Assembly: GCA_958009085.1 (NCBI GenBank) | Contig: OY253673.1 | Location: 1,302,001-1,366,000, forward strand | Direction: 5' to 3' | DNA from: Protoeuglena noctilucae | Lineage: Eukaryota | Length of the DNA: 64,000 nucleotides | Shown here: positions 11,039 through 64,000 of the stretch, in pieces | How positions within the stretch are numbered: position 1 is the first letter of the stretch | Layout: the number at the start of each line of letters is the position of its first letter | The notes under the pieces: generated by a model | What the model was told of the DNA's origin: nothing | The model's input: the letters and a program-made list of their open reading frames with translations, nothing else | The model's database searches: none | Program-made: the position numbers and the translations under genes

Positions 11039-14000
11039 ATGCCGTCGAAGAGACAGCGGGAGGAGGCGCCAGAGGAGGCGTTCCCCCGCGGGGGAGGCAA
11101 GGCCCTAAAGGCCGCCGAGGACGACGAGGTCCCGGCTCTGTTCGCGAGCAAACCCAAATCCAAGAACAGCAGACATAAAAGCTTGTTCGGGGGCCAGGTG
11201 GGGAAGGGCAGGGGATTCCTTGCGCGGCGGCTGGCCTCGACGGCCGTCCTGCGTGCAAGAGCAGGGGACCTAGCCGTCGGGGGGGGGGCACTTTTAGCGC
11301 CCTCTCGTCGTGAGCGCGATACGCATAACCTACTCTATCGCGTGAAACCGTGGCTGCATGCTCCGGGCTTGAGACGCGCCGCTGCTGGCCTTGCGACGCG
11401 GGCCGCCGCACCATGCAGCGCGGGTGCGGGAGTGCGGCCCACGACAGGACTCGCACCGGATCCCTGCTTTCGTGACCATGCATCACTCCCGCGCGCCTGG
11501 TCCCTCGCGACTCGTGCGCTCGCGGCGAGCCTCGTTACCTCGGCCCGCGTGCCCTACACCTCGCGCGGACCCTTTCCGGGAGCTCATTAGCGCCGGTTCC
11601 GTGTTCCGCAGAATGAGTTGCTCGTGGACGATGGCCCGTCCGCCAAGGAGCAGCGTTTCGTGGAGCTGCTGAAGCCCAAGGCTCTCCACCGCGGCACCAA
11701 GCTGTGGGGCTGCGTTTCTGTGATAAGCAGAGACGGCATCGTGGTCTCCGTCCCTCACGGCCTCAGGTAAACATCCTGTCAGAGACACAGAGCATAAAAG
11801 CGGGCGAATGGTTTGAAGTAATGACACCCAGCTGCGACCCGCAGTGCACCAAGGCTCAGCCATGCGCCCAGAACATGGACACCCCTTTCAAAGCCCCCCC
11901 GTGCCCCCCGCTCCTCCCCAGAGTCCACGTGGATGCCGAGGAGCTTTCTGACACGGTGGGCCCCGAGGATGACGTGGACCCAGCGGCCCTCTTCCGCATC
12001 GGCCAGCTGGTGCGCGTTTGCGTGATGGACGTCGTCATCGGGGATCGAACCAAGGTCGTCGGATCCACCAAGCCTTCTCTGCAGGTGCGCACGGCGGGGT
12101 GCGCGAAGTCACATGCTGCCACAGCCTCTCCTGCTGCACTTGTTGACTGTGGCGACTCCGCTGGCCTCTGCTTTGCCATGTCTCAACCCCACTCGCTCCC
12201 ACACCAACATCCGCAGAACAAGGCCCAGTCGCCCTCTTATACCCGCCCATCTCTGCCCTGTTTGATCCCCACCCTCCCTCTCATACAACACTCCCACATT
12301 ATCCCCGCAGAACAAGGCCCTGTCGCCCTCGGCCCTGCAGCCGGGCATGGTGGTCCCCGCCTCCGTGCGCAGCGCAGAGGACCGCGGCTATGTCCTGGAC
12401 CTGGGCATGCCCGGGTGCACCGCCTTCCTCTCGGACACCGACGCACGGGACGCGTTCGGCGACGAAGGCGAGTAGAAGTGGTGGTGGTGGTGGTGGTGGT
12501 GGTGGTGGTGGTGGTGGTCAGTTACTACCGCCGGTTCGGTGACGCCGCTGGTGTATATGAGGCATAAGTATGGGTAGATGGATGGATGGCATCTCAGTCA
12601 TGTCAATTCTGGTCCTATCCGATTCCCTCAACGCTGACTGTCTCTGTCCCCCACCCATCCCTCGCAGCCCTGCCCCCCGGGCTGGTGGTCGATGCTTTGG
12701 TGGCCTCCGTTCCCGCCAGGAAGGGCCGGGCGGTGCAGGTGGTGTGCACCCCGCAGAGGGTCGCAGAGACGGCCGTCACAGACTGGGGAGGGCTCACCCT
12801 CGAGTCCCTCGTGCCGGGGTCACTCGTGCAGGTGAGGTGTTACGCATTTGAATGTGACATGCGAGGGTAGGTCGTGCAGGTGACATCACATGCCCTCACA
12901 CACCAGCCAAATGGCCGACACCCACCCACCGCACCCCCACACACCCTCGCCCCTAACCCCATCGAACACACCCTCCCCACCCCCACATCCACCTTTGCCC
13001 CCGCAGTGCAAGGTGCTCCGCGTCATGGACGACGGCATCCAGGTCTCATTCCTCGAATATTTCACCGGCACCATCGACCAGTTCCATTTGGGCCCTCGCG
13101 CCCTTGCCCCCGACTGGCGCTCCGCGTTCCCGCCCAACACGCGCCTTCCCGCGCGCATCCTCTTTGTCGATGCCGAGACGAAGCGAGTCGGTCTCACCGC
13201 CCTCCCGCCACTCCTGGCCTTTCAGCCGCCCGGGGGTATGCCCCCGCTGGGAGCGACGTTTTCTGACGCAATTGTGAGGAGGGTGGACAAGGGCGTGGGG
13301 GTGCTCGTGGAGCTGCGGGACCAATCGGGGGAGAGCGTGGGGGCGGGGTACGCCCACATATCAGCGCTGTCGGACACCAAGGTGGACAAGGTGAGAGGGT
13401 TAGGGTGGATGGATGAGGAGGGGTGGACTGGTGGATGTCGGTAGCGGCACTGGCGTGACCGGGTGTCTAGCCAGATAGATACCTAGCTAATGATCCATCC
13501 ATCCATCCATCCATCCACTCTCTATCCATCCATCATCCCGCTATCCATCTGTCCATTCCCTTACTGCCATTCGCAGATAGAGAAGCTCTTCCACGTCGGC
13601 CAGGAGGTGCCGTGCCGGGTCACGGGATACCGCCCCATGGACCACCTATGCACGGTGTCTATGAAGAAATCGATCATGCAGCAGTCGGTCGTGTCCATGA
13701 AAGAGCTCACGCCGGGGCAGGCGGTGTCTGGGGTGGTGAAGGAGGTCACGGCCAATGCGCTCTATGTGGAACTGGCCCCGGGGGTCAAGGGGCGCGTGGC
13801 GGCGATGCACATGGCCGGTGAGACGCGGTGTCGGGTGCGGTCGTTGCGATGTGAGCGATGGGAGGTGTGGTGGAGTCGCTGTGGAGTGGGTTGCCTGCCG
13901 TCGGCTTGTTGCGTGGGTGGTGGGTTGCAGCTGTGCAGTAGCGGGATGTAGGGGGTGCATGGAGGCGCGTGGTAGACAGTTACAATGCATCTCATCATAC

Positions 14001-17000
14001 ATATATATCATATATATCTCATATATCATATCTAGCTCTCCGTCTCACCTTACCCCCAGACGCTCGCTTCCACCGCGCTCACAAGAAGTTCAAAGTGGGC
14101 CAGGCCGTGACGGGCCTGGTGCTGGGCGCTCCCAGCAAACCCGGCCGGGCGTGCCCGTTGACCCTCAAGCGAGCGCTGATCGACTCCAAGCTGCCTCGCA
14201 TCGTCAGCATGGACGGCACGGCGCCTGGGACCAAGAGCCACGGCACGGGTGAGAGGACGATAGTGATGGTGGGCATATTGCCCATCGTATGTGTTGATGA
14301 TGATGGGTGGATGGGCAGATGTATGGGGGGAGAGATGCAGCAGGGTTGAGATGGGCAGGTGGGTGGCGGGAGACGGGTGAGGGTGGGTGACATGGGCAGG
14401 TACGTGTGGATGCATGTGGAGGGAGAGGTGGCTTGGTTGAGATGGGCAGGTGCACATGCACATAGCTTCACTTAACTTTCCTTTTTCCTTAACCCTCGCA
14501 TCCATGTCCCCCCTCGCAGTGACGGGCATTGAATCCTACGGCGTCTTCGTGGAGTTTTTTGGGGGCGTGACGGGCCTGGTTCCCACGAAGGAGCTGGGAC
14601 TCGAACCCGGGCAGAAGGCGAACGAGGCATTTGAAGTCGGCACCGTGGTCAAAGCAAGGGTAATGTCCGTGGACGCTGCCAAGGGCCGGCTGCGGCTGTC
14701 GCTGAGCGCAAAGGCAGCGGCGGAGGCGGCGGGTGGGCCGGCGTTGTCGCCTGGCGATGTGGTGGGGGGCACGGTGACTGGGGTGGAGAGAGATGGGAAT
14801 GGGACGCTGCGGGAGCTGCGTCTGCGGGCGGGGGCGGGGCAGGCGCTGGTAATGCCGACTGCGCACCTGTCGGACCATCCACTGGCGATCGAAGCACTGG
14901 CGGAGGCTGTGAGGGAGGGAGACGAGGTGAGGGGTGGTGCTGTTCATGGGGTTGTGAGGGAGGGAGACGAGGTGAGGGGTGGTGCTGTTGGTGGGAGATG
15001 TGAGGGTTGATGCTGATGGTGGGGGCTGTGAGGGAGGGAGAGGACAAGCAAGCGTTGCTGCACCACAGCCACGCTACCATCACGATACGATAGTGACGGC
15101 GTAAGCTACTGCCACTTAACCTCACATACACCCTCACCACTCCCCCACCCCCCCAGTTCCCCGACCTGCTCGTGCTCGACGTCTACCCCACCACGGGCGA
15201 CGCGCTCGTCACACGCAAGCCGGCCCTGCTGGCCTCTCGCGACGTCATGCCACGCGACATCAACGCTGTATCTGAGGGCCTCACTGCGCCCGGATACGTC
15301 GCGAGCGTGACCGAGGAGGCGGCGTTTGTGAGGTTTTTGGGTAGGTTGACGGGCCGCGTGCCTCGCTCGCATGTGCCGGGCCCCGGGGAGCAGGCAAACC
15401 CGAGAGAGAGTTTGGTGACTGGTCAGACGGTGATGGCCCGCGTGACGGGCGTGGATGTCGCCAGGGGCCGCGTCGCGCTCTCGCTGCGGCCCAGCCTGTG
15501 CGCGGCGGCCACCACGGCTGCCCCGCTGCTGGCGTCGCTGTGCCGGGACTTGCACCTCGCTGCGGCGCTGCAAGAGCGGCGGGGGGGAGCGGGCGACCAG
15601 GGCGGCGTGCCGCTGCAGGTGAGGGGTAAGGGGGCGGGGCGGACATGGCTGCGATGGACCTGCAATAGTGGGTGCATGTTGACCATCCTATACAGATATG
15701 ACAACACCCACCGACCACTCCCCCATCGAGTGTTGTTAACTCTCTCATTTGCTTTCTTATATCCTCTCCCATCCACTCTCCCATGCACACTCCCCGCAGA
15801 CCTTCTCGAGTGGCCCCCTGCGCCCGGGGTCCCTGGTGACCGGCACGGTGGATGAGATGTGCGACTACGGAGCCGTCTTGACGCTCACCGAGTGCGACGA
15901 GGCCATCGGATTGGTGCCCACGGAACAGCTGTCAGTATTAGAGACGACTTTCGTGCCCGGCAGCGCGGTGCGGGGGGTGGTGGTGGATGTGACGCTGTCC
16001 CAGGGGCTGGCGGAGGTGAGCGGCCGAGCAGACTTGCTCGAGGCAGCGGAGGGGCGGGCGAAGGCAACAATGAAGGGAAAGAAGAAGAAAGCGACTGCTG
16101 CGGCTGCGGAGGGGGCGAGGGAGGTGGAGCTGGGGGTGGGGGACCGGGTGACTTGTCGGGTGGAGGTGGTCAAGCCGGGGTACGCGGCAGTGTCGCTGCC
16201 TGCGACCCACGGGCGCGCGATGGCGCTGCTATCGACGTGCACGCTCAACACGACGCGGGCGCACGGGGCGCGGCTGTCGGTGGGGCAGGAGGTGGCAGCG
16301 GAGGCAGCGGTAGAGCCTAGCGAAGCGTCGTTGGGGCGGTGGGTGCTGAAGTTGGTGCCGAGGGACAAGAGCGAGGGAACAGAGGGGGTTAAGAAGGAGA
16401 AAGGGGAGCGAGGCAAGGAGGCAGGGCCGGAGGTGGGGCTGGGTGACGTGGCGGACGCGACCGTGACGGCCGTGCATGCGACGCAAGTGGAAGTGCGGCT
16501 GCCGTCGGGGCAGGTCGGGAGGGTGCATGCCACGGAGGTGAGGGTTGGGAGGGGTGGGATGGATGATGTGGGGAGGTGGTATTGAATGGTGCTGTTGACA
16601 ATAACAGGGTGGCGAGTGTGGCACCTCTCTGTCTCTCCTCGCTCATCTCTTTCATCTCTTTTCTTCCATCACTCACCTCCCATCTCTCACCTCTCATCTC
16701 TCACCTCCCATCTCTCACCTCTCATTCCACCTCTCACCTCTCACCTCCCTCTCTCACCTCTCCTCACCCCCTCAACCCCTCAGATCCTCGACTCCATGGC
16801 AGGCGACCGTGTCCCCCTCGAGGGCCTCACCCCAGGCACCCACCTGCCCTGCACCGTGGTAGCGGAGGTGCAGGGAGCGGGGAGCAAGAAGGTACACGCG
16901 TTGGAGCTGTCAGCACGGCCGGCAGCCGTGGCGGCGGCGAGGGAGGGGCGGCCCGCGGGGTTCCGGTACACGCTGCCGGGGCTGAGGCAGGGGCAGGTGA

Positions 17001-20000
17001 GAGGGTGGGAGTGGTGGTTGTGGTACACGCTGCCGGGGCCGAGGCAGGGGCAGTGATGGCATAGCTGAGATGCACAAGTGACTACTGTGCCCTTCCTCTC
17101 CCCATCACACTGTCATCCCACTCCCTCTCTCTTACCCACCCCCCCAGGTGGTGGAGGGCGTGGTGCAGGAGACGCACGATCGATTCCTGTGGGTCTCCCT
17201 TTCCCCCGTGCTGCGTGGCCGGCTGCTGCGGCTGGACGCCTCCTCCGACCCCAACGCCGTCGCTGCTTCAGAGACCTTCCCACCGGGGACGCCCGTCCGG
17301 TGAGGGAGCGAATATTGGATGTGGTGTATGGTACATACATGGTGGTGGTGGGAGCGGGTGGCGGATGTGGTGTCTGGTAAACGGTGATGGCGGTGGGTGC
17401 GGGTTCGGGATGCAAGTGTGCGCGTCCATGCCCCCTACGTTATTCATCCATTCCTATCCCTTATCATCTTATCCCATATCAGTTCTCCCTCACCATCCCC
17501 CACACCTCTCCCTGACGCCCCCAGTTGCCGCGTGGCTGCCGTGGACGTGGGCGCGCGGTCGGTCGACCTCACGCTAAGGGACGAGCCGCCCTGCACGTCC
17601 CTGCCAGCTGACGGGTCCCTCGTGATGGGCGCGGTGGCCAAGCTGACGCCCACGCACGCCCTGGTGTCGCTGGGGGGCAGGCGGTGTGGGCGTGTTGGGG
17701 TGGTCGATGCCGACGACGCGTATTTGGACAAGCCACTCTCCCGGCTGCGTGTGGGTGCCTACGTGAGGGCCTACGTGCTCCGCTGCGACGAAGACGGCGC
17801 CCGCATCGACCTGTCGCTCCGGCAGCAGCATGGGGCGGCGTGGGAGGGGTGCGAGCGGCCCTCGCGTGTGGCTAAGAAGGATCGCGTGCCGATGAGCCTG
17901 GACCCGCGGTGGCTGAAGAAGGGCGACAGCGTGCGGGGGTGGGTGACGGAGGTGTCCAAGAAGGGGGTGTTCGGTGAGAGATTACGGGGTTGGGTTGGTG
18001 CGTAGGGGTGGGTGGGGTGGTGGTGGTTGGGTATGTGGGGTAGAGAGAGCATGAGGGTGGGTTGGTGGAGGTCGAGTTGGTGAAATCACAAATTGGGACT
18101 TGGGAGGTTGCTGTCTGCCTCACTTACCATGCATCGATCCCTTACTAGTACTAAAAGTAGCACTTAGTGCTACTAAGTGTACTCGCTTCGTCTCGCAGTT
18201 GCCCTCCCTGGCTCCGCGTCCGGTCGCGTCAAGCTCTCTCATTTGTCTGATGGCTACGTGGAGGACCCCGCGGCCGCCTTCCCACCGGGCACACTCGTGC
18301 GCGGCAAGGCGAGTGGGTGGGGGTGTGTGGGTGGGGGTGTGGGTGTGGGTGGAGATGGGTGTGAAGGGTGATGAGGGGCTCTGTAGCTTAAGAATACTGC
18401 TGTCTGAGAATGGCTCTGCGCATGTCGGGAAGCACGGGGTGTAGAATCTGCGGAGTGGACTTACACGCACACATGCGCACACGCACCCATGCACACCAAT
18501 GCAGCACATCCCACTCGCGTCAGCCTCCCCTCGCTTCCTCGTCAACAACATTCAACTCTTAAAAATCCAAATTCAAATCCTCCCCGCAGGTGCTGGAGGT
18601 GGACCCCGAGGGCAGGGTGGACATCGACCTCCGTTCGGGCGCGGGGCGGCAGCCCGGGGTGCGCACCTTAGAGGAGCTGAGCGAGGGCGAGGTGCTGTGG
18701 GGAGTCGTGAAACGAGTCGAGAAGTACGGGGTATTCATGCTCCTGGACGGCACGGCCTGCACGGGGCTGGCGCACGTGAGCGAGTGCGGGGACGGCTTTG
18801 TCAGAAACATCGGGGAGCTGTTTCAGGCGGGAAAGCGGGTGCGGGTGAAGGTGATCAAAGTGGATAGGGACGCGGGGCGCGTGTCGCTCAGTGCAAAGCC
18901 ATCGGTGGTGGGGGCGGAGGGCGGGGGCGGGGCGGAGGGGGCGGGGAGGGCGGAGGTTGATTTCGAGGATGTGGTGATGGAGGGAGACGATGGGGGTGAC
19001 GATGGGGAAAACGAAGCGTCGGGGAGTGAGGGCGAAGGGGATGGGGACGGGGGCAGTCTGTCCGAGTCGGATTTGGTGGGGAGCAAGGGTGACGGTGGGG
19101 ATAGCGACGATGACGACGGCGGCAGTGATGATGGGATGGGGGAGGGAGAGAGCGATGGGGAGAGTCGTTCTGAGGAGATGGGCAGTGAGGAGGAGGGTGG
19201 GGACGCGCGAATGGGGGAGGAATCATCGAGCGGGGATGGGTCCGATTCTGGCGATGGGGACGATATCGGTGATAGTGACGATGAGGATCTGGATAAGGTC
19301 GATTTCGACGACGTGGGGGTGCGGAGGGGGGTGGCGGGGGAGGGGATTGGGGCGGGGGGCGAGGGCGAGGGCGGGGGTGGGGGTGAGGGTGGGGAGGGGC
19401 GGGCGCGGATGGGCAGTAAAGAGAAACGGCGGAAGAGGGAGGAGAGGGAGAGGGCCGTGCTCGAGGCAGAGGTGAGTGTGGGGTTTGTGTTAAGTATGCG
19501 TGCGGGTGTGAGTGGCGATGGGGGCCATCGGTTTGTGGCTTGCGTATGGGTCACGCGTGCTCGGGCAATGCTGAAGCAATGCGCGGCACCCTGTTGCGCG
19601 TGCGGGGATGTTCGATTTCATCCCCTCGCCTCGTGAGCTATCGTGTCTTCTTTCGATGTTACCCCAACGTGCCGTAGCGCCGGCACGCAACGTGCTGTGC
19701 GCATCATTCCGCGAACCTCGCCCCCGCAGCGCCGCAAGGTGGAGGGCGACGCGCCCGCGAGCGAGCACGAGTTCGAGGCCCTCTGCGTCGCCTCGCCCAA
19801 CAGCAGCTACATCTGGGTGCGTTACATGGCGTGGCTGCTGTCCCGTGACGACGTGGCCCGGGCACGCGAGGTGGCCGAGAGGGCGCTGCGGACCATTAGC
19901 CAGAGGTGAGGGAGTGCGATGGGATGTGGAATTTGCATGGCTGTGTGTTGTGAAAAATGGGTGGGACCCCCACCCTGGGAGGGGCTGAGAGTGACTCGTC

Positions 20001-21994: not shown

Positions 21995-24900
21995 TCACTT
22001 GAGTTTCTTGCGCGTCAGTTCGAACAGCACGCTCGGCACGCGGTAGATGGTGACTAGTGTCCAGAAGAGCTCCTCCTCCATCTCAAGGTCACCCTCGGCG
22101 CGGGCGATGTAGATGTCGTCGATCAGGGCACGCATGCGCTGCGAGGGGGGGTGTGGGTGTGGGTGTGGGTGTGGGTGTGGGTGTGGGTGTGGGTGTGGGT
22201 GTGGGTGTGGGTGTGGGTGTGGGTGTGGGTGTGGGTGGGTGTGAATGCTAGGGGGTGGGAGTGTCGATTGCTGTCAACTACACACTAATCATATCATATC
22301 TTACCTTGGGATCCGGCGTCTGCTCGTAGGGTATCTTGAGCTTCATGTTAGTGACCGACACTCTCACGAACTTGCCCACGGCCCACACCACGCCCAGGTA
22401 CAGTCCGCTGATGGAGAGAGACGAGAGCTGGGACCCAACGCCGCCCGTGCTGACCTTGTCGAGCAGGGTCACGACCTGGGGGGGTGATGGGGGGGAGGGG
22501 TGGGGTGAGAGGGGTGGTGAGGTGAGAGGGGGGTGGGAGGTGGGGGGTTGATGGGATGGGGTGGGGGGTGAGGGAGTGTGGCAAGGGAGGTGGGAAGTAA
22601 GAGGGGCGATAAGGGGACTGGGAGTTGCATGAGTGGCAAGCGGAACTGCACCAAGCTCCCTTACTCCCCTCAAAACCCCATCACCTGCCATGCCTTTTCC
22701 TAATTACCCCATCGCCCCCCATCATCCCCCTCATGTCTCGCCTGTGGTCCGTTATAGTTCCCGTTCCCATAGCACGTCGCGTGGCTGTCGTTGGTCGATG
22801 CCCCGCTGAAGGCCGCAGCACGATTGGAGGCGTACCCGCAGTACACGGCCCACCAGGCGTCGCCCGCCGCATCCGTGTCCAGTTGCAGGTCACAAAAGAC
22901 CTGAGAGCAGAGGTGTTGATTTTGAATGAAGATGACTGGAATTGTAATTGGGATCTTTGGGGTGACTGCAACCTTCTGGTCGCTGGTCCACAGCCCCATC
23001 GACGACGCGCTGCTCCCCACTCACCCACTCACCCACACCCATTCACACACCCATTCCCATTCATCTAATCACACCCACTCTCATGCAACCTCCCACCTTC
23101 TGGTCGCTGGTCCACAACCCAGTTGACGACGCGCTGCTCCCTTCCCCCGCCGCCGCCTCCCTCAACACCGCGTACTTCTCCCTCCTACTATACAGCAGAT
23201 CGATCCCCTGGTATCCCGTATTCACCGAGCACGTGCTCCCACCCACGCGCCAGAACAGCGTGTAGAGCCCCGCCTCGCTGCCGGCTGCCGCGTCCAGCGT
23301 GGCGCGCGTGGCTGTCCCGTTCAGCACCGCCAGAACCGCAGACACCGACGTTGGGCTCAATTCGGTCGACACCTGCGCCTGGCACTCCCCCGCAGCTTTG
23401 TCGTTGCGGCTGAAGGACCACTGGAAGTCCACGGTCACTGACGCCAGGGGATCCGCCAGAACCGCCGCCAGTCTGGCGCGTAGCGGGGGGGTGACCTGCC
23501 AGCGCGTGGACGACCGCGGGTCGATGCAGAGGAGTTGCAGGGCGGATGGGGCGTAGTTACTGAGCTCTGGGGGCCTCGCATTGGCCCCAGTCCAGTCCTG
23601 GGTGGACCACCGGTAGCCGCCCGTGTAGACGGGGACGGTGAACTTGGCGCCGATGGGGGCGCCGTCGACGGAAGTGGACTGCGGTGAGGGGTGGGGGAGG
23701 GGTGATTGGGGTGATTGATTGGTCTGTGCCGACGTGTTAACGGTGTCGACAGGTGCCTATGTCTACCACACATAGACTTCCCATTCACCAACAATGCCCA
23801 TTGCAACTACAAATGCTCCCACATCACGCTCAGTCACTCACCGTCGGCAGCGTCGCCCCAATGCTGACTTGCACGGTATCCACATGCACCGTGGGCACTT
23901 GGAAGGCCGGGTTATAAGCGGCGAAGAGCATCAGCGGCATCCACACCAACGCGCACAGGGCGCAGAAGAGCAGCACTCCCTGCAGCACCTTGCGCCAGCT
24001 CGGCTCCTTGCGGCCCAGGTAGCGGAAGTGACTGGGGGTATGAGAGGGGGGAAGAGTGAGTGAGTGGGGGTGATTGGGGGGTCGCGGAAGGGGGGAGTGG
24101 GTGGGGGTGGTGGGGAGGTGAGTGGGGGTGGGGGTGAGTGAGGGAGTGAGTCAATGAGTGAGTGAATGAGTGAGTGAGGGAGGGAGGGAGGGAGTGAGGG
24201 AGTGAGTGAATGAGTGAGTGAGAGAGTGGGTGAGGGAGGGAGTGTGGGTGAGTGGGTGAGTGAGTGTGGCATGTGTGAAACTGAGTGCATTGCTTATCAC
24301 CCCCCAAACCCCCCACCCCCCATTATTACTCCTCTCCACTTACCGAATGTTCCTGTCGAAGGTCGCCAGGAACAGCGCCGCGTGGATGTCCTCGATCAGC
24401 AGCCAGTCGGAGAACCGCAGCGTGGTGAGCGTGCACGCCCAGTCCAGAAGATGCCGCAGCTCAAACACGAAGGGAATACCCGTGGTAATCGTGTAGATGT
24501 ACCACCCGATCGCATTCGGGAACTGCAGGAACAGCTGCGAGTATCTGCCGATGCCGTTGCGGTAACTGGATGCTTCCGGGTAGCCCGACCGCAGCTGCAG
24601 CGCCCCAAACACCAACGCAGATCCTTTTAGCAAAAGGAATATTCGCAGGTGCACGCCGGCCGGGGACTTGAGGCTGGAGTACCAGTAAGCGCTGGTCACG
24701 CCGCCGACCAGTATTGACACTTGGAAGTAGTGAACGATGGCTTTGAGGAAGTGGGAGCCCATGGTGTAGGCGAGTCGGTCGAGCACCATGAGCAGGAACA
24801 TGCCGATGAGCAGGCCCAGGAAGGAGAGGGGGACGATGCTGGTGCCTGGGGGGTTTGGGGGGGTGGGGTGGGGGGAGTGAGGGAGGGTTGGAGTGGGTTG

Positions 24901-27900
24901 GTGGGGTACAGGAATGGTGCGGTATGGAAGGGCGGGACATCGAAAGCGCAACCCTTGCTTCTGCTACCAAGCCATCCCTCATCTCACCGGTGTTGGCGAC
25001 GTCATTGTCAATTCCCAACACCCAACCCCATACATACTACTACATACTACTTACTTGTCATTCACCACTCCCAACACCCACATCCTCACATATATAACTA
25101 ACATACATCAACCACTCATCTAACCCATCTCACCCGTGTTGGCGAAGTCGGCGACGGTGGGGAAGGTGGCCCGGAAGAATATCGCGGCGTACAGGAAAGC
25201 GAGGAAATCGAGTCCGATCGTCACGGGATAGAAGTCCTGCCTTTCCCGGGAGTGGCCCTCGATGTGCAGGATCTGGGAGCCGCCGTAGCCGCAGTCGGGG
25301 AGAGCGGGGTCGTAGACGGGGTTGGGGTGGAGCCTGGGGTTGGGGGGGTGAGGAAGTGAGGGGTTGGTGAGATGCCACTCATTGCACCCTGTTAGTAGCC
25401 CACTCCTCTCACCTGATCGCACCTCATGCCACTTCCACAGTCACACACTCATCTCACCTCACGCCACCCTCGTGCCCCTCCCCCGCCCCATTCCCCTGCA
25501 TCACAGGCCCCGCCGTCGACGGCCGCTCCCCATCCCCAGCCGCCCCCGCCACGCGTAACGCGCGCCCGCTCCCGCCCTCCTGATGCGCCACTCCGCTGAT
25601 CGTCACGACGCTGGAGGCCGCGGGCGGTGGCGCGGGGCGGCGGGGGCCCGATACTTCGCCAGGCGAAGCGCCCACTGCCGCCCCCGCTGCCGCCTCCGCT
25701 GTCACCCCCGCCCCCGCCCCCGCTCCCACATTGGTCGGAGTGACGACATCCGATCGCATCTCTTGCTCTGGGGTTGGCTCGAGGGTAATGGACACGCCAG
25801 CGCCCGCAGAGGAGGCGGAGGGTGGGGGAAGGGACGGGGGAGGGGTGCGGGGATGGAGGGGCGTGCCGGCTGCAGGGGCGGAGAGGGGAGGGGTGGGGTT
25901 GAGGATGGGGTTGTGTTGGTAAGCACATGTGAGTCTATGTAAGCATGTGAGCATGTGTAAACATGTGAGCATGTAAGCATATACACATGTAAGCATGTAA
26001 GTAGTAGTACACTAGTCCTGATATAGCTATGCAAGCATCCCTGCAGTCCCTCACTCGTGGCGCTGAAGGGCGAACGTTGGTGCTGGTGCGAACCCAGCGC
26101 CCCCACCCCCACCCCAGGGGCGTCAAACGACGCCCGATTGGCCATATCCGAACTGGATCGATACACCGACTCGATCCCAATCCCAGGCCTCCTCGCAAGC
26201 GCCGGCAAGCCGTCGGCCCCCACACCGCCCCTCAGCGTTCCCTCATCCCCCACCCCCGCCATGCGCCCCTGCGCACCCCAACCCCCGGACTGCGCCGCCC
26301 GCAGCTCAAAGTCGTGGCTTTGCGTGGGCGACCGACCCCACGGCACGGCCTGTAAGGGCGCGTGGGCGGCTCGTGCCATGGGGAGGTGCCTCACAGCACG
26401 TGTGAGGTCCACCTCGGATCGTGATGCGGCCATGGACCGGCTCGCCAGGTCCAGGGGCCCGGAGCTCTCCGTGTGATGCACGACGGTGTCCTGGGGACAA
26501 GGGGGAGTGGGGGTAAGAGATGAGGGAGTGGGGTGTGGAAAGTGGTGAGCGATGAGGGGGTGGGTGGGTGCGGGATGGAGGTGTGTGTGGGTAGTTTGAA
26601 GTGGAAGAGCGGGTGGGTTAAGGACAGGGAAGGTGCATGCACGCGAATGCAGGTGGTGTGGGTGCGAGTGTGCGTGCATACGCGTGCTCAGGGCGTGTGT
26701 AATGGTTGCGAAGTAACAACCCATGCACGGCTCGCCAGTAGCACAAACACAACACCATTACACCAGCCACCCCCCTCACCCTCCGAATCCCCGACAGGCT
26801 GTTGGCGACGCTGCGATCGGGGTGCCTCCTGCCACTTGCATCCGACCGCAGTTGCGGGCGGTGGGGGGAGGGCGTGACCCGACCGCTGTCCGGCCCCTGC
26901 GTCCCCTGCCACCCCTGCGCCTTCTCCTCTTCCATTATCTCATCGTCTGAATCACCGGGCATCGCGTCGCGACCCGGCACGAGCCCCTCAGCCACCTTGA
27001 GCCGGATGGGCGATGGGGCGTGCAGTGCGGCGGGTGCGACATCACCCTGCATGTCAGTAACCAGTGTGGGGTCCAATGCTGCCAGGTCGACGCCAGTATC
27101 GATGCCCAATGAGCGGCGGCGCTGCAGGCGGTCCAAGTCCGCGACCTGCGTGGGGGGGGGGAGATGGGAGGGGTGCGGTGAGGTGTGGCAGACATGCGTG
27201 GGGTGAGAGGGGAGGGCGCGTGTGTGCAACGGTGTGTTGTCCGAGACTCAATTCCATCAGTCGTCAACCTGCCCATGTGTCGCAACATTATACATTGTCA
27301 AAAGCAAGGCTCTTGCATCCATACTCACCTCCAGCTCTCTTGCATCAACGCAACGCAATGCACCGCATCCCCTCACCTCCGCAACACCCTCGTCGCAGGT
27401 GAGCATCGACCCCAGTGCCGCGCTGGGCAGCAGGCATCGGTATTCCCTCCACGTGACACCCGCCGCATCTCTCCCTTTGATCTTGGTCGACAATGCCAGG
27501 CCCTCCAGCATGGGGAGCATGTCCCGCATCCACTGCAATAGGTGAAGGGATGTAAGAAGGGTCTGTTAGAGTAGACAGTGAGAGGCCCAGCATCATAGCA
27601 TGGGGAGCAGGACTCGCATCCACTGCGACGGATGATGGGGTGGCTGTTAAGTGCATATCGTGCGATGAGCCTGTACTAGGAAGGGTGCAAGGGGTACCAA
27701 GTGCACATGGGGCAACAAGCATTGAGACGCCGCTCTGCACATCCACACTTACTCGCCATGCCCATCCACCCCGCACACCCCCACCCCCCAACCCCCCCAT
27801 CACCCCACCTGCGGCCTCTGCCCCGCCCACATCTGGTCGATGTGCCGCGTGTGCCTCCCCGCCAGCACCAGAGCCCTGACAAAGTCGCGAGAGGGAGTGA

Positions 27901-30900
27901 CTGACCGCGGCACCAGCCCCCGGCCTTTGCGGTGGGCTGGGCCGAAGCCGGTGCGCGGGAAGAGCTCCACGGTGAGTGCCAGGATGGTCCAGCCGCGGAT
28001 GGAGCGGCCCAGGCGCTGCGGGGGGGGTGGAAGGGGTGGGCAGGGTGTGAGAGGGGCAGGGGAGGGCGGTGCAATGCGAGGGGTGTGACATTGGTGGGAG
28101 TAATGCGAGGGACGCAAGTCACACGGCTGGAAGGCAATGACAGTATGCAACTACACAGTGACTGTGCAAGAGATACAACCGACGCAACTGCTACACCCCC
28201 ACCCCACCACCCCACACCCCCCCACTCCTTTCTCTCCCCTGCCCCCCTCACCTCCGTCACGGGCAGCTGCATGGCCTCCGCGGGGTCGACGATCTGCTCC
28301 AATCGGTACAGCCGCAAATCCATCGGACCCACCGCAGCCAGGTTGACCTGCCCCTCGCCCCACCTTGCCTCAGGCAGGCCCATCCTAACCCCCTCCGGAT
28401 CCCCCGGCGACGCCAGATCTCCCCCGTTGCTCCCCACCTCCTGCCGCGGCGACCCCAGCTGCGATTCGCCAGACAGCCCCGCATCCGACTGCCGCGATGC
28501 GTGCTCCTCCTCCACCCCCGCCCCTCGCGCCCCCTCATTCCCCGACTCCCTCGCGCCCGGCCCCGCTGCGGATTCTTTCTCAGACGCCCGCGCCGCCCCC
28601 CGCCTCTCCCACACCTCCGGCGCAGCGTCTAAGTCATGACGCGCCGTGTTGAGCCACTTGCGCTCCACGTGCCGCACCTGGGCGATCCTCACAGTGTCCA
28701 AAACCGCTTGCAGGAACTCCTGCATGCGCGCGTGGGCCTCCGAACTCTGCGGCGGCACCGCTGCGGCCGCCCCCGCCCCAGGCGCCACGACCCCGGTCGG
28801 CAGCACCGGCTCGCGCGTGTTAAGCGCCACCACCACTCTGGCAAAGTACGGCTGCCGCTCTGTGCTCGTCGCCGTGCCGCGCGCAAACACCAGCGCGCGT
28901 GTGAGCGCCAGCCGCGCCCAGAACAGCACGCTGCGCCAGAGGGACTGTGCACGCTCGGCGTGGGTCTGCTGCCCACGCCCCTCCGCACCCCGGGGTCCCC
29001 TCAGCCCCTTGCCGCCCATCTGCCGCCGCAGCGACCCAGTCTCCGCAGCCTGCCCCATCCTCCGCAGCTCCCGCGCTTCCTTGACCCGCTTGTCCGCCTG
29101 TGCTTGCACCTCATACTGGCTAGTCAACACCGCACCCTTCGCCGTCCCCACCATCTTCAGAGCCTCCATGCGCCGCGCCCCGCCGTCGCCGCCCGCGCCA
29201 TCCGACGAGCTCCGCCGCGCGGCGTCAGTGTCGAAACCCTCCTGGGGTAATTGGCCCCCTTGCCCGCCCGCCCCTGCACCGCCACCCCCCGGTGACAGCA
29301 GCGGCCGCCCCGGCGCGCCCTGCATGGCCGCGCGCTCCGCAGCGCGGGAGAAGGCGCGGCGGGTGCGGAGAGCCGCGGTGTAGGCGATGAGCGAGAGATA
29401 GGCGAGGAAGAGGGGGATGGCGCTGGCGGCGTGCTCGTGAAGGCCGGCATACAGCACGTTCACGGACAGGACCGAGTAAGGCCCGAAGTCCTTGCAGTAG
29501 AGCGACGTGAAGATCTCCAGGAGGTAGTCGATCACGATCATGGCCTCTAGGTACGTCTGAAGCGCTTGCCAGAAGCTGTGAGAGGTCTTTTCGGCCACCA
29601 GGCACACCCCGAGCACAATCGCCACCAGCAGAGCGCTCAGCACCCCAACGTCGATGACGAAGAGCAGCGATAGGAAGAGATAGGAGAGCAACAAACGGCC
29701 GTCCGTCTCACGGAAGAAGGTCCGCATGTGACGGGCCACCCAGAGGCCGAACCGCACGAACGGGCTCGGCGGCTCGCCCACTTCCGACGACCAGATCATC
29801 TTCGGGCCGTGCCGGGCGGCGCCGCGGCCCGTGGCGCTCCTCGCGCCGCCCACCGTAGACGCGGTATCCTTGGCAGTGCCTGCCCATAGGTCGCTCGGGT
29901 CGCGTTGGTCAGACACATTGGACGTCGACCCTTGGCGCTTGTGCCGGGGCGTCAGCCGCGCTGGGGGCTTGCCGACAGCCGTCCCTTTGGATTTCGCCAA
30001 CACCACGCGGCGCGTGGGGCCCTTGGAAGCGCCCTTCTGCCTATCAGGGCCGCCCCTTCGGTCGTTGTGACTGTGACCGTGGTGACCGTCAATGTCGTCC
30101 ACCCACCCAGGGCATCCCTCCAGATAAGCGTTGCCCGTGAAGCCGCGCAGCTTGGCGAGCTTGATTGCCTGCTCCATGGCCTGTGGCCGCCTGACGCGAG
30201 TCGAGTCAGCACCAGCCGCCAGCACAGATACCGACCGCTTGTGGGGGCGCATGGCGGCAACCGAGGTGTGCGCTGCAATGGCCCCCGAGTCCTGCGCTGC
30301 GCCGGGGTGCGCTGCGGTGGTGGCACTCGCGTCGTTGAGGTGCTCGCCCTCCAACAGACCCACCAACTCCTGCAGGAGAGGGTGGGTGGGGTGGGGTGAG
30401 CGGAGTGGGTTGTGTAAGCAGGGTGAAAGTGTTGGTGCTGGATGAGGGCGTTCACGAGAGACACAAGTAACTCAAACCATTCAGCAAATAGCCGTGCATG
30501 CTTCGCTCACCTGTAGCTCTTGGGGGTTGGGGTTGCCGGTATATGCGACCTTCATGACCGCCGCCCTCAGCTCCTTGACCCTCCTCTTCCTCCTGGCGCG
30601 CCACTTGCTGGTCGCCTCCGCCACCGCGGCCTGCTTCGCCTTCCACGCCTCGGCCTCCCTGGCCCTCGCCTCCTCTCTCTTCATGTCCAGTTCGGCCGAC
30701 AGTCGCACGATGCGTCCGAACAGGTCCGAGTTGCGCACGTTGACCAGGAGCCTCAAAAGCATGAACAGCAGCACCTCGGCCAGGTTGCCCCGGCGCGTGA
30801 GGGCCAGGGAGTCCTTTGCGCTGTAGACCTTCCGCATGCCGAAGATGTGGGTGGCCTGGCAGGACCCGCCACCGTGGAAGGACGAGTAGGTGGCGTAGCT

Positions 30901-33900
30901 GAGGAAGTCCCACGGGGCTTGCACGGCCAACACGACCAGGATGACGACCAGATTGACCAGCTGCAGGGCGCGGAGGGACAGCCAGGCGGCCAGGCCTCGG
31001 CGGCGGGTGCGGAGGCGCAGGTTGGTGCGGATGCTGCGGGTGGTGGGGTGAGAGGTGAGGGGTGAGGGCGAGGGGTGGAGTGGGGTGAGCATGTGGGGTG
31101 GGGATGATGGGTGGGTGGTACACAGCAGTGCGAGGGGTGCTGTGGCATGAACGGTGCTGTGGGGTGTAATGAAAGAGGTGGGGATAGTAAGCCTCACCGG
31201 AACAGGTATGTGGCGGCGAGCAGGTAGAAGAGGTGTAGCACGTCTTGGGAGACCGTGGTGAGGATGACGACCACGACCAGCAGACTCGAGTAACAAGAGG
31301 TGGGCGTAGAAGCGCAGTGCGTCCAGCACCGTGTGGCATCGCCAGTGGGAGGTGGACAGGCGGGACCAGAGCAGGCCGGCCTCGTCTCTGCGGAGGGGGG
31401 TGGGTGGGGGTGACGGGTGGGTGGTGGTAAGAGTGGTAGAGGGTGGTTCAAGGTGAGTGGTGGTGGTGAGAATAGACAGCCACTCAAGGCCAGTTAATAA
31501 GGCTATCACTTGTCCCACCCTCACCTCCTCAGTCCCTTCACCATGCCCTGTCAATAACACCCATCCCACCCTCACCTCCTCAGTCCCTTCACCATGGCAT
31601 GCACCAGCTTGGGGACCTTGGCGACCGGGTTCTCGACATCGGCACGCTCGTGCGACCGCCACGCCTGGGCCATGATGGCTGCGGGGATGGGGGTAGGGAT
31701 GGGGTGAGCAGTGAGATGGGCAAAGTAGGCAATGTAAAAAAGCAATCAGTGACATGTGCAGAGCAGGCGATGTGATGTGGGTGAGCAGTGATGGTGCAGA
31801 CAGTCGAGGGGAACAAGCAAGCAGCGATGGTGCAGACACAAAAAGGCGAAGCGGGTGACCAATTCTGCCACCTGCTCGCATCCATAGTAACCATCCACCA
31901 CCCCCACCGCCCCTCACCCCCATACTCGTACGTCATGCACGCTCACAGCTACTCATGCACCACCATCACCCCCACCGCCCCTCACCCCCATACTCGTACG
32001 TCATGCACGCTCACAGCTACTCATGCACCACCATCACCCCCACCATGCCTCGCCCCCGTACTCGTACGTCATGCACGCTCACAGCTACTCATGCACCACC
32101 ATCACCCCCACCATGCCTCACCCCCATACTCGTACGTCATGCACGCTCACAGCTACTCATGCACCACCATCACCCCCACCATGCCTCACCCCCGTACTCG
32201 TACGTCATGCACGCTCACAGCTACCCACCCTACCCATCCACCATCAATACCACCACTCACCCCCGTACTCGTACGTCATGCAAGCGAAGGCAAAGAAGAG
32301 GAACCACACCGTCGCCGACTCCACGCGGCGGTACCCCAGCCACCGGCCGACCGTAATCCACATAAGAGACGACCCCTGCAGAGCCGCAAACTCCTCCCTT
32401 GTAGTGGCAGTCGGCCTCGGCACCGGTTGTGCATATGGCTGCACGTAGTCTGGGCCGTGGTAGCCGGGCACGTTGGGCGGCAGTCCCACAAACACCAAAT
32501 ACTGGTAGGTCAGGATGCCGCACACGATGGCCATGACCCAGGGGTACACCCGTCGCAGCTGCGTCGACCGCGTCACAGCTGCGTGGGGGGCCTTGGATGC
32601 TCCTTCTCCGCAGGCGTCCCCAGCGTTGCCGGTCTTGGCAGCGGGCGGCTCGGGCGCGCGGGCGGCGTACATGGTGGTGCTGAGGAGCACGGCTAAGGCG
32701 ACCAGCGCGAACGATATCACGCTGAACGACGAGAAAGCCGCCAGGAGCAGGAACAGCGAGGCGGCCTCTCGTCCCAGGATCAGCCACCCGCGCTCCATGA
32801 GCACCATCAGCCCCACCCCCGCGAACCGCATCTGCAGGTTGGCGCGCAGCGTGCGCTCTTTCCGGTCCCTCAGCTCCCGCGCCTCCCGCTCCGCATTAGC
32901 CTCCGCCCTGTCCCTCCCCTTGCGGCCCTTGCCCAGCCGCCGCGACCCCACAACCTCCGCGCTGCCCGCCAGCCGCGCCCCGGGGCCGTCGGCTTCCCCA
33001 TGAGACGACGCGTGGCGGACGGGTGGCGCGTCAACCGTCACGTCCCGCACCTCCCTCGATAGCACGTCCGCGGCCCTGCCCAGATCGAACTTCCCGATGT
33101 TCTCGCCCGAAAGAGAGCGATAGTGCTTCTTGGGCCTGGCACCCCCTGCCCCCGTGGGTGGGGTCCAATTTAGCGCCAACGATGCCGCGACGGACGCTCC
33201 CATCGCCGAGGGGCCCAGGGACAGGCACCCCATGGTCTGGCCGCGGCGGTGGCCGGGGCGAACGGGGAATGCGGGCGCGGGGGCGGGGGCGGGGGAGGGG
33301 CCAGTGGGGTCGGGCGACAGGCGTCGCCACGGAGCGTCCGCGTTGGGGAGGGGCAGGGTGCGCGCCAGCCCCACTGCTGCGTCCCGGGAAGGACTGAGCC
33401 CGCGTCCCAGCGGCGCCTGCGCCGTCTGCGGCCGGCTGACCCCCGGCTGGCTGTCACCCGGTGCGTCCGCCCCCACCGCGCTCGCCCCCTCAGCCCCGGG
33501 CGCCCTGGCAATCGCCCTCTGCCCCAGCTGCCTCTTGTTCATCTCCTCCTGCTGCGTGCGGATGGCCGACAGCAGCGGCTCTGCCAGCTTCCTCAGCCGC
33601 TGCGCGAGCGTCATCTCCAGCAACCCGCGCTTGGGCCCCCGCAACTGGGCGCTGACGCTCCGCTCCAATGCCTCCAGTCGATCGGCGGGCGCCGGCCAGA
33701 AGAGCGCGCAGGGCTCCCCGAGGTCCCCCGCGTCGCGGCGCAGCACGTCCGGCAGCGATGCGAGCCACCGAGCGGACGCAACCTCGATGGCGACAAAGGC
33801 CACCAGGAGCGCCTTGGGCCTCAGCACTCGCTCCATGTCCGGCGTGGCGCGGCTGAGGCTGATCCCCGCGGACACGAGGTACTCGGTGGAGGGCAGGCCG

Positions 33901-39900: not shown

Positions 39901-40151
39901 CCCCCGGCTGCCGCGCGCCTCACCCGGGCGGCGAGGAACACGCCGAAGGCGAGCGTGGCTGGGTTCATCACCACGGCCCATTTCTTTCGGATAGACATCA
40001 CCGTCGCCTCGTCCACCTCGTTGGTGACGGCGCCCGTCGGCACATCGCTCGTCGGCAGAACGGGCTGCCTGCCGCTGCGGAGGCTCCACCGCGCCGACAT
40101 CTGCTCGCAAGGTGCAAGAGTGGGACCTTTCGGCGGGGAGATGGGCGACAT
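21995..40151 (-). CDS. PIEZO: Piezo-type mechanosensitive ion channel, ~29 exons, roughly 4,100 aa (start uncertain)
   Basis: Many transmembrane segments. Piezo signature IPFVFELRHLLDWACTLTTLRFSDWLLIEDI and ALQLRSGYP; inner helix SISGLYLGVVWAVGKFVR; C-terminus DDIYIARAEGDLEMEEELFWTLVTIYRVPSVLFELTRKKLK-TGA. Confidence 0.93.
22149..22240 (+). repeat. (GTGTGG)n hexamer microsatellite, ~14 copies, adjoining the last PIEZO 3' splice site
   Basis: Read directly; reads (CCACAC)n in the transcript sense. Confidence 0.95.
24055..24268 (+). repeat. Degenerate (GAGT)/(GAGG) repeat in a PIEZO intron (C-rich in the transcript sense)
   Basis: Read directly. Confidence 0.8.
25921..26000 (+). repeat. Degenerate AGCATGTR octamer array in a PIEZO intron
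   Basis: Repeated agcatgtg/agcatgta units. Confidence 0.75.
31900..32283 (-). repeat. 68-bp minisatellite: 5 intronic copies, each containing the PIEZO exon end and 5' splice site, plus the genuine junction
   Basis: Core TACTCGTACGTCATGCA (+ strand) starts at about 31923, 31991, 32059, 32127, 32195 and 32266; the last is exonic. Confidence 0.92.
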
Positions 40152-61776: not shown

Positions 61777-62385
61777 ATGGCGTACCCCGGCATCTACCAG
61801 GATGGCCAGCGCCGCAGGCAGCCCCTGTTCGGGCAGGCTCAGGGGCAGATGCAGCAACAGCGTCCCGACATTGACCAAGAGGTTGGGTTGCTGCAGGCGA
61901 GAGGCGCAAGAAGTGCGCAGGGAAGCGTGTTGCCTTTGTTTTCTGCACGACACGCTCTGCCGGCTCGCTTGAAAACCTTTCCGCGTAATGTCGCAGGAGG
62001 GAGTGGACCAGCTGAAGTACATGGCGCGGGAGATTGGGGAGGAGGCGCGGCAGCAGGGTGCCGTCATCGACGCCTTGGTGCGCACTGCAAATGCTCCCGC
62101 AGCGACGCGCGCGCGCGGCGTTCGCGGCGCTCCGCATCTGCATCGTTGTAACAATTTCCTACTGCGCAGGAAGCGACGCTGGAGAAGGCGCGGGGAGCCC
62201 TGCGGCAGGGCATGCGTGGCTTGAACCGCGTGTTTGCCCAGTCTCAGTCCAACCACATGATATACCTGCTGCTCTTCGCCCTCGCGATGTTCACGCTCGT
62301 GCTGTTCTTCTCCCGCATCATCGGCATCGTGCGCTTCTTCGTCTGCATCCCCAGCGTCGTCTTCGGCTACTGCCACAAGCACTGA
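61777..62385 (+). CDS. Bet1/Sft1-like Qc-SNARE, 3 exons
   Basis: SNARE helix GVDQLKYMAREIGEEARQQGAVIDAL|EATLEKARGALRQGMRGLNR, then QSQSNHMIYLLLFALAMFTLVLFF (transmembrane). Confidence 0.85.
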
Positions 62386-62591
62386 GACACACTGGGTGCT
62401 TTGCTGCTGCCTTTGCTGCCGCCACTGTCCCACACGCCCGTCCACTTCTCTAGTTTGTCGGCCGCTCATCTAGTCGGCCTTCCTTAGCAGAGTGAAAGAG
62501 TTCACAGTGACTCCGCGCTTGCAGCTTGCCACGCCGTGCCGCTGCAAGCCCACCACACACCACCGCATGCCCCATCGCCCGCCAGGCGTCC

Positions 62592-64000
62592 CTAAGCCGC
62601 AATGGCCTCCCCGCGCACTCCAGATCGCTTCTTAGCCGAACCCCCCGGCCTCGGCGCTGCTTCGTTGTTGACGCTCAGCGACCCCAGCAGCGACCGCACC
62701 GCCTCCCTTTCAGATGCCTCTGACGCTGCGTCACCGCGGCTCTGCGTCTCCGATTCGTCGCGAGAGGCTGCGGGGGGGATGGGGGTGGATTGTAGGTGTG
62801 ACTGGGCGGGGTGGGAGAGAGAGATGGCAGGGGACACTGACATGTGTGGGGGACATGGGACGGAGCATCCATGCACACCCCCTCCCACACCTACTCCCTC
62901 GCCGGCACCTGCCCCATGCACTCCCACTCCACTCCCTCCCCCATACACGCCCACCCCCACTCACCCGCACCCTGCCCCTCCCCCTGCGGCCCATCCTCGA
63001 TGTCCACCAGGTCCACCCACTCGCGCGCATGGGGCGGCAGCCCCGCCTGCTCCTTCCAGTGATCGACAAGCTTCTTCAGTCGCATCATCTCCTTGCTTGA
63101 CTCGTTCTTGGTCACGCTGCAGGTGTGTGGGGGAGAGTGGTGGGTCAGGGGGGAGCAGTGCGTGTGGTTGTGTGTGGGAGGGGATGGAGATAAGATGGGA
63201 CGTGTTGGATGGCCATGTGGGGTGGGGTGTTGAGGTGATGTAAATGGGAAACATTGCGAGCCTCTGATGCGTGCTGCGAACTCGCGCTAGCCTTGGTCAC
63301 CACCACCGTCCTCCCTCCCCCATCTATCCCCTCGCCAGTTCTTGCTAATCCCCATTCCACCACTCCCCCTTCCCCGACTCATCCCCATACCCCCTCGCCT
63401 GTTCTTGATGGTCCGCACGCGCTGGGCATACGTGAGCGAGTTCTGCGTCTCGTCGAGGTTGCCGTCCGTGGGGGACACGTTGACGAACATGAGCGTCTTG
63501 GCGTTGCCGCCGAGCGAGTCGGACATCAGCATGGTCAGTTTTGAATTCCGGTAGGGCACGTGGGGGGTGCCGGAGGCCAGGGCCGAGATGACGTCCCCCA
63601 GCGCGCTCAGGGACTTGTTGATCGCCGCCGCCTCCTTCTGCTGCACGCCCTCGGAGCCGGACTTCTTGAGGCGCTCCGAGCCAGCCAGGTCCACGAAGGA
63701 GAGCTTGCCGCGAGTGACGGACTGCGGGGGTGGGGGGGTGGGGGTGGTGGGTGGGTTGACATGCGCGGGGTGGGGATGGGGTTGAGGGGTGGGTGAAGGG
63801 GATGGGCGTGGGGTGCTGGTAAGGGTGCGAGGTGCCGGTTTCGCTTCAGCACCGCTGTTAATGTCCAGTCGGGTTGATGGAAAGGTGCAGGGGTGGTGTC
63901 GCGAGTTGCCACAATCAGTCACACCCCTGCGTCACCACACGCCACCCCCGCTGCTGCACCCCGCTATGCCACGTCCCCTGCCATGCCACAACCCCCTCCC
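62592..64000 (-). CDS. KCBP: Kinesin-like calmodulin-binding protein (kinesin-14), last three exons; the window ends in an intron
   Basis: Exon 63721-63398: [42 protein letters not shown]. Exon 63116-62965: calmodulin-binding helix [19 protein letters not shown]. Last exon 62767-62592. Confidence 0.92.

Follow-up and report, generated by a model that had tools for sequence, protein, structure and literature searches.

Under the Rogers model, a new intron reportedly arises when an AGGT proto-splice segment is duplicated in tandem, and it runs from the GT of the first copy to the AG of the second. The introner elements of marine algae are said to be introns derived from transposons, a description attributed to Huff et al. 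in 2016. At the level of DNA breaks, small tandem duplications that are abundant in the genomes of many species have been ascribed to CST-guided Pol alpha-primase fill-in followed by end joining, at breaks with complementary overhangs (PMC8355091, abstract). A 2009 study outlines the copying of proximal DNA into a nearby break, with 1–68 nt of filler and microhomology at the breakpoints, by which exons and intron splice sites were duplicated; its pipeline covered vertebrates and insertions of 50 bp or more, at a mean separation of 1.2 kb (PMC2671141). Intron sliding and intron gain through small duplications are also described, in outline, by Lehmann et al. 2010 (PMC2891723) and Hellsten et al. 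2011 (PMC3265369). Here, we analyzed a 64-kb stretch of DNA from Protoeuglena noctilucae (assembly GCA_958009085.1, contig OY253673.1, positions 1,302,001 to 1,366,000 of the forward strand), called the window from here on, for echoes: short extra copies of an exon-intron boundary inside that boundary's own intron.

Intron growth and splice-site movement without transposons are poorly documented, and the window offers a dated series of junction copies. We consider it rather likely that the echoes are the footprints of short, same-strand, local duplications, produced when breaks or nicks undergo error-prone repair or when replication slips, and then filtered by selection at the mRNA level.

Junction copies inside their own introns

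Introns were defined with a gene model trained on the window itself (codon-usage log-odds and Viterbi segmentation, no annotation input), and exon ends were refined through frame-consistent GT/GC...AG pairs and iterated splice-site position weight matrices (PWMs). The model predicted 93 candidate introns, and the 54 with a score of at least 8 and a length of at least 100 nt formed the confident set. Long stop-free genes support the model, as do homologue and Pfam matches that stop at or near predicted junctions (see below). The window has a GC content of about 65% with a marked GC periodicity at the third codon position, and its donor consensus is CAG|GTGAG.

A 40-nt window around each junction (-25 to +15) was aligned by Smith-Waterman against its own intron, with all other confident introns as control. 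At a score of at least 14, donor windows matched their own intron in 8 of 54 cases and foreign introns in 2 of 2862, and acceptor windows did so in 2 of 54 and 0 of 2862, respectively. The top donor matches, derived blind, lie at 14927, 31575, 32260, 23096, 16997, 25133, 25457, and 63398; these are sites that an initial annotation of the window had already pointed out, and a separate blastn self-comparison of the window found the same pairs again. A score of at least 15 is reached in 0.03% of foreign pairs and one of at least 12 in 0.6%, so that about 0.3 matches of the latter kind are expected over 54 introns. Donor 12832 is the ninth-ranked donor match with a score of 12, and because this score is reached in 0.6% of foreign pairs, its pair at 12824/12872 is indistinguishable from chance.

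The initial annotation had claimed at least ten such pairs. All ten fall on junctions predicted by the model –nine donors and one acceptor (27507)– and nine of them go beyond chance, the pair at 12824/12872 being the one that does not. The alignment of each junction against its own intron, which had been proposed as a genome-wide check, was run on the 54 confident introns and gave results far above those for foreign introns, although windows from the intron interior matched about as often (see below). About one intron in six bears an echo; echoes are present at about 15% of the confident donor junctions in the 64 kb and in 31% of the introns in one 21-kb stretch. By place, junction echoes were found in 9 of the 29 introns between 11 and 32.3 kb and in 1 of the 25 elsewhere (p = 0.014).

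It is exceedingly improbable that the echoes arose as artefacts of assembly or matched by chance, given the difference between own and foreign introns (8/54 vs. 2/2862). This explanation can draw on the pair at 12824/12872, and on the 68-nt array described below, whose copy number is given as assembled only. Most copies are diverged, and all of them are shorter than a sequencing read. Of the 31-mers sampled across 22900–32400, 0.99 are present in an independent re-assembly of four DNA runs from one sample, which speaks against artefacts; the runs possibly come from the source sample of the assembly, and this makes the independent support weak.

All junction echoes are direct repeats, on the same strand and at short range. 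At equal threshold, blastn gave 36 direct local high-scoring segment pairs (HSPs), from about 17 events, and 2 inverted ones. Apart from the array, copies at the junction pairs are 12–47 nt long and lie 45–146 nt apart, and the copied donor segment consists of 8–45 nt of exon end and just 2–18 nt of intron. Identity between copies goes from 100% down to about 75%, and thus the duplication events recur over time. As the initial annotation proposed, these local duplications across splice junctions lengthen introns: each event adds 45–146 nt, the array about 340 nt, and echoes together make up roughly a tenth of the confident-intron length. Its proposal of a process free of transposons is supported within the window, where no dispersed repeats were found at E ≤ 1e-3.

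At two donors, the exon end and the donor itself are part of a true tandem array. At donor 14927 (+ strand), the original at 14905–14944 and the echo at 14950–14989 are 40 nt long and 45 nt apart; Tandem Repeats Finder (TRF) reports a 45-nt repeat × 2.2 with 92% matches at 14905–15041, with a third, decayed copy near 15017–15041. At donor 32260 (- strand), an array at about 31890–32285 comprises a 68-nt unit × 5.7 with 92% matches (TRF, 31890–32282), and its exon-side first unit holds the donor and the last 25 nt of the exon. On the acceptor side, the echo of 27533 (- strand; original 27507–27552, echo 27597–27642) copies 46 nt, 20 nt of intron and 26 nt of exon, at a distance of 90 nt. Similarity to the exon persists in the stretch that follows this echo (p = 0.007 vs. 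shuffles), and the echo looks like a decayed 90-nt tandem unit. A second acceptor echo, at 12310 (+ strand; original 12291–12330, echo 12196–12236), was absent from the initial list; it spans 40 nt (20 nt of intron and 20 nt of exon) with a score of 25, and blastn matches 26 nt of it at 96%.

Six other donor pairs have a copy-spacer-copy layout, with spacers of 18, 21, 36, 43, 77, and 122 nt. Among the individual donor pairs, the one at 31575 (- strand; original 31564–31596, echo 31513–31545) is identical over 33 of 33 nt, with copies 51 nt apart and a unique 18-nt spacer. Donor 16997 (+ strand; original 16965–17000, echo 17022–17056) has a 36-nt copy with one mismatch and one gap (97% identity), 57 nt apart, and a unique 21-nt spacer; 32 nt are exonic with the one mismatch, and the GT of the echo has lost its G by a 1-nt deletion. 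The longest copy, at donor 23096 in the Piezo-like gene (- strand; original 23095–23141, echo 22971–23017), covers 47 nt at 91.5% identity, 124 nt apart, with a unique, G/T-rich spacer of 77 nt. Donor 25133 (- strand; original 25126–25149, echo 24980–25003) has a 24-nt copy with two mismatches, 146 nt apart, behind a 122-nt spacer. The pair at donor 25457 (- strand; original 25446–25482, echo 25401–25436) is gapped and diverged (roughly 75%), with a score of 15 and copies 46 nt apart. The GC-type donor 63398 in the kinesin gene (- strand; original 63388–63407, echo 63325–63344) also scores 15, with 20 nt, two mismatches, and 63 nt between copies. Finally, the pair within chance at donor 12832 in the RRP5-like gene (+ strand; original 12824–12835, echo 12872–12883) is an exact match of 12 nt, 48 nt apart.

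A simple tandem-unit model was rejected for the six donor pairs with spacers. Head-to-tail units are found only at 14927 and 32260, and partly at acceptor 27533. Their spacers have the ordinary G/T-rich composition of intron 5' parts. As far as the sequence layout can tell, copy-spacer-copy fits a templated insertion and, equally, a duplication with filler.

The same layout resembles an insertion with a flanking target duplication, and the spacers could be small mobile insertions, introner-like or other, with the junction repeats as target-site duplications. A 10-mer, GGGAGTGGTG, is common to three spacers. To our knowledge, repeats of 20–47 nt are longer than the target-site duplications made by transposases in general. 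Spacer lengths differ, and the spacers have no shared ends or extended similarity beyond that one 10-mer. Their composition is that of ordinary 5' intron sequence, no repeat is dispersed within the window, and the target-site duplications tabulated in PMC2671141 measure 4–21 nt. Altogether, we regard mobile insertions as highly improbable.

Decoy donor sites are the second product of these duplications. The median PWM score of real donors is 10.3 bits, and their 10th percentile is 6.2 bits. Six of the eight echo donors tested score 8.7–14.7 bits and are as strong as real donors: those at 14972 (13.7 bits), in the echo of 31575 (31524, 13.5 bits), and in the echo of 25133 (24987, 10.9 bits) each equal their own real donor, and the echo of 25457 (25412) reaches 14.7 bits. 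The echo acceptors of 27533 and 12310 lie near 27597 and 12216, respectively. The 68-nt array at 32260 adds four more donor-like sites of 8.7–10.5 bits. The other two echo donors are inactivated, 17054 (PWM score of -10.4) by the 1-nt deletion that hit its GT, and 22972 with 1.3 bits left. Across the 54 introns, 21 intronic GT sites reach at least 8.5 bits, and 11 of them lie in echoes, the three strongest included. Judged on these scores, echoes create look-alikes of donor sites, in agreement with the initial annotation.

Use of the echo donor is predicted to lead to a stop codon in six of the eight cases, immediately so for the echo of 31575. Donor 14972 would give 15 extra codons, in frame and free of stops, and is the sole stop-free echo with an intact donor; 17054 is stop-free too, but its donor is destroyed. 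Together with the stop-free gene models, these stop codons fit the use of the upstream donor.

It is very unlikely that echoes were kept by selection, either as decoy or alternative 5' splice sites (for tuning of expression by way of nonsense-mediated decay or for an added peptide) or as extra U1-binding sites. Although six of the eight echo donors match real ones in strength and 11 of the 21 strong intronic decoys stem from echoes, two echo donors are already destroyed and six of eight would bring premature stops. The long exon-derived parts (8–45 nt) have no bearing on U1 binding and indicate a recent origin rather than constraint, and the spread of identities down to about 75% is what neutral decay would give. 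The 15 in-frame, stop-free codons predicted at 14972 count in favor of selection; at 14927, the alignment with homologues can do without a 15-residue insert.

The echo at 14927 also bears on annotation. A public 168-residue product of an open reading frame (ORF) caller, P0003, spans all of the exon 14522–14926 at 100% identity. It fits the stop-to-stop frame 14441–15010, which continues beyond donor 14927 as far as the echo, and apparently represents read-through; it would then be a mis-annotation that stems from a frame staying open across an echo. For a spliced product of this exon, the protein database gave only P0003, an unspliced ORF of the window itself. An echo donor can be chosen, or read through, by gene finders and ORF callers, as P0003 apparently shows for read-through.

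Origin of the copies

Confident introns are polarised. From 10 to 70 nt after the donor, the G fraction is 0.37 and the C fraction 0.21, and in the last 70 to 10 nt, C rises to 0.45 and G falls to 0.16; C-rich words of the kind CCCACC / CACCCC are the most frequent ones in introns. Over the first 60 nt, echo-bearing introns have a higher G4Hunter score than the others (0.99 vs. 0.43, p = 0.006) and a lower C fraction (0.07 vs. 0.21, p = 0.001), both measured on a stretch that partly contains the echoes. Echoes are linked with G-rich 5' intron ends in position too: eight of eight fall inside the G-rich 5' segment or at its end, and those of 12832 and 23096 exactly at the switch from G to C. This position is nearly forced, since the events are short-range.

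Other features of intron sequence were considered. Pairing between intron 5' and 3' ends gave no signal (own -31.5 kcal/mol, foreign -30.2, shuffled -30.6, exon controls -33.4). A build-up of introns from decayed donor copies was rejected, as GTGAG occurs 28 times in introns, against 42 and 38 times for its anagrams ATGGG and GATGG. The 10-mer GGGAGTGGTG occurs 5 times in the window, where composition predicts about 0.3, for a motif chosen post hoc. Its sites at 17007, 25063–25072, 63357–63367, and 8922–8932 are in transcript orientation and in G-rich 5' intron parts, three of them within the spacers of echo pairs.

The local duplications that we favor would take place in repeat-prone introns, strongly G-rich at the 5' end, with a high background of small direct duplications. 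Tandem repeats are indeed common across the window (44 TRF rows, about three in four within 12–32 kb). The head-to-tail form at 14927, at 32260, and, decayed, at 27533 would result from tandem duplication. In the copy-spacer-copy form, a junction copy of 20–47 nt would be placed 18–122 nt deeper in the intron, which fits microhomology-primed copying at a break. More specifically, a break may occur in the G-rich part of the intron, and one end may prime on G-rich microhomology in the first intron nucleotides, copy a few tens of nucleotides leftwards over the junction, and then be rejoined. Leftward copying from the intron start would account for three features: the repeats are direct, the spacer looks native, and the right end of the copy is fixed at a point just inside the intron.

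Selection on the mRNA would then act as a survivorship filter. A duplication wholly inside an exon would add to the mRNA and be removed. One that spans the donor would do no harm, since splicing from the upstream donor leaves the mRNA as it was and the second copy becomes intron. Surviving events, presumed neutral, would add their 45–146 nt to the intron and leave strong decoy donors behind. As this filter predicts, exon-interior tiles are nearly never echoed in the adjoining intron (1 of 215 and 0 of 223), and the single match belongs to the long copy at 23096.

Several results weigh against this explanation. None of the six donor-pair spacers resembles the sequence that follows the echo (p = 0.06–0.95), and thus a single simple tandem duplication fails to explain these pairs; an 11-mer search of the window for a template of the spacers gave nothing beyond low-complexity matches. 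Scans of metagenome contigs, protein-based and with exact DNA, found no alleles or relatives with an empty site. The distribution of events is a further difficulty. We compared it with an event-level model where events are placed uniformly wherever the mRNA stays intact, given copy length and intron length. For 12 strict events, six span a donor and 1.9 are expected (P = 0.004), or 2.7 if the exon-anchored copy is granted a twofold advantage in detectability (P = 0.03). With seven weaker events added, nine are observed and 2.4–3.5 expected. Once the four array-bearing introns are set aside, local repeat matches are found for 7 of 50 donor windows and 7 of 186 interior windows (p = 0.013). Finally, the asymmetry between donors and acceptors (8 vs. 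2, p = 0.09) is explained only loosely. The event-level counts come from a hand-curated list of 12–19 events in one 64-kb window.

The donor excess is what a second explanation predicts, to which we give a minor chance: donor junctions themselves would be mutational hot spots, with a G-rich non-template strand, starting at GGTGAGGG, that would make the first tens of intron nucleotides prone to R-loops, G-quadruplexes, or stalled forks. In this still tentative scheme, breaks would be mended by short templated synthesis back over the junction into the exon, which would copy the junction preferentially and drive intron growth and donor turnover. It differs from the local duplications that we favor mainly in where the breaks fall. 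The copied segment always stops 2–18 nt inside the intron and reaches 8–45 nt into the exon, and the echo-bearing introns have the most G-rich and C-poor 5' ends, with all eight insertion points within or at the end of the G-rich segment; these observations, like both measures of donor excess, argue for a hot spot.

However, the G-richness measure partly contains the echo itself, and, with events of such short range, the eight insertion points could hardly lie elsewhere. An exon-anchored copy cannot decay, which inflates detection, and the numbers are small and come from the single window. Moreover, when the arrays are counted, the rate per window is about that of intron interiors: 27 of 214 interior 40-nt windows and 8 of 54 donor windows have local repeat matches (p = 0.65), most of the interior ones from the four array-bearing introns. 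Acceptor-spanning events are at expectation in the event-level model, with two observed. The initial annotation had singled out short duplications being equally common away from junctions as the outcome that would count against its idea; this is what we found with the arrays included, and a donor excess appears once they are removed or in the event-level model. On the counts available from the sequence, the evidence on whether donor junctions are targeted points both ways. Taken as a rule for all genomes whose introns are G-rich at the 5' end, a hot spot of short templated duplications at the 5' splice junction itself seems rather unlikely.

The answer would matter in either case. A donor bias that is true of the whole genome would connect the base composition of introns with DNA fragility and with the evolution of splice sites, and this connection could be tested. 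If junctions are hot spots, echoes would be a major transposon-free route of intron growth and the main source of full-strength decoy donors, and they would supply raw material for donor turnover and exon extension, such as the stop-free 15 codons at 14972. If the bias fails, the case still shows a background of small duplications and mRNA selection shaping intron ends.

Genes and gene model

The echoes lie in genes of several families. An RRP5-like gene on the + strand, at about 11–21 kb, has S1 and OB_RRP5 domains (Pfam). In the model, it is free of stops from the exon start at 12311 onward. Its homologues in the protein-database search were only 30–32% identical; in tblastn, the HSPs of two RRP5 homologues stop at 14929 and restart at 15166–15202. 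RRP5 homologues also align at 18198–18308 on the + strand (tblastn, E about 1e-5), inside a low-scoring predicted intron of 596 nt, where an exon was missed. This intron is outside the confident set of 54.

The Piezo-like gene on the - strand, 21998–40106, has a weak THU_Piezo1 match in Pfam, and the nearest Atlas clusters are named 'Piezo THU9 and anchor'. Its likeness to known Piezo families is confined to the C-terminal part. The model gives it 28 exons, 27 introns, and 4062 codons without a stop, with single exons of 3026 and 2118 nt. A GC-rich marine picoalga described in PMC9481584 has 0.45 introns per gene, which does not match the 27 introns of this one gene. Marine metatranscriptome runs contain 0.20–0.51 of the words sampled from 22900–32400, where the model assigns about 61% to exons; these shares are roughly in line with expressed and spliced genes in this stretch. 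A kinesin motor gene on the - strand, 63.3–63.9 kb, was identified with Pfam, and the motor match stops near 63406, at the exon end.

GC-AG introns have a uniform AG|GCGAGG donor and account for 12 of the 93 candidates and 2 of the 54 confident introns (for example, at 63398, 8975, 35942, 38219, and 22741). At 12465–12667, the coding frame shifts at about 12473, next to a perfect (GTG)×13.7 microsatellite at 12478–12518. The intron there probably starts near 12465, at a GC-type donor AAG|GCGAGT, rather than at 12539 as in the model, and the microsatellite would then be intronic.

Two other regions hold tandem repeats. At 31006–31118, in the - strand gene, repeats of 18 nt × 2.2, 13 nt × 2.4, and 36 nt × 2.3 lie at or just inside the acceptor end of the intron 31034–31197, and the 18-nt repeat crosses the acceptor junction 31033/31034. 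At 3039–3255, a 78-nt repeat × 2.8 (80% matches) lies where the coding signal is weak, and this region may be intergenic or an untranslated region.

Comparison with described systems

The closest intron-specific systems share some features with the echoes. As with introner elements, the setting is a marine eukaryote rich in GC, with introns of about 200 nt and direct repeats tied to introns. In contrast to them, no multi-copy family was found in the window, and neither introns nor spacers have common ends or dispersed similarity there; insertion of introners was rejected for lack of a family in the window.

As in intron gain of the Rogers type, a local duplication copies exon and splice signal, the mRNA is unchanged, and one copy is spliced out. 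In that type of birth, the copy of the exon end stands at the 3' end of the intron, whereas the echoes sit inside pre-existing introns with more intron behind them: their ends lie 52–154 nt from the donor, in introns of 124–582 nt, and tens to some 240 nt of intron remain before the acceptor. No donor echo sits directly before an acceptor, and Rogers-type birth was rejected. Given this position away from the acceptor end, we read the echoes as intron extensions and not as intron births.

Literature searches turned up no paper on dense junction echoes inside introns, or on a donor-side bias. The initial annotation had presented the phenomenon as new at this density. The kind of event is known, as far as PMC2671141, PMC2891723, and PMC3265369 set it out, and what stands of the claim is that no report of such density turned up. 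Thus, small duplications in which a splice site is copied while the mRNA stays the same are already in print, and possibly only the density is new.

In terms of mechanism, the echoes resemble the duplications of PMC8355091 in being short, direct, and local, on a scale of tens of nucleotides, and the head-to-tail form of those is also seen in the two arrays (45 nt and 68 nt) and in the decayed acceptor unit of 90 nt. They differ in the unique 18–122-nt spacer of six donor echoes, and a link with splice junctions is not part of the abstract of that paper. With respect to the events outlined in PMC2671141, the echoes are shorter-range, 12–47 nt long and 45–146 nt from their source, all direct and anchored at a junction. 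What they have in common with those events is the layout, in which nearby sequence is copied close to its source.

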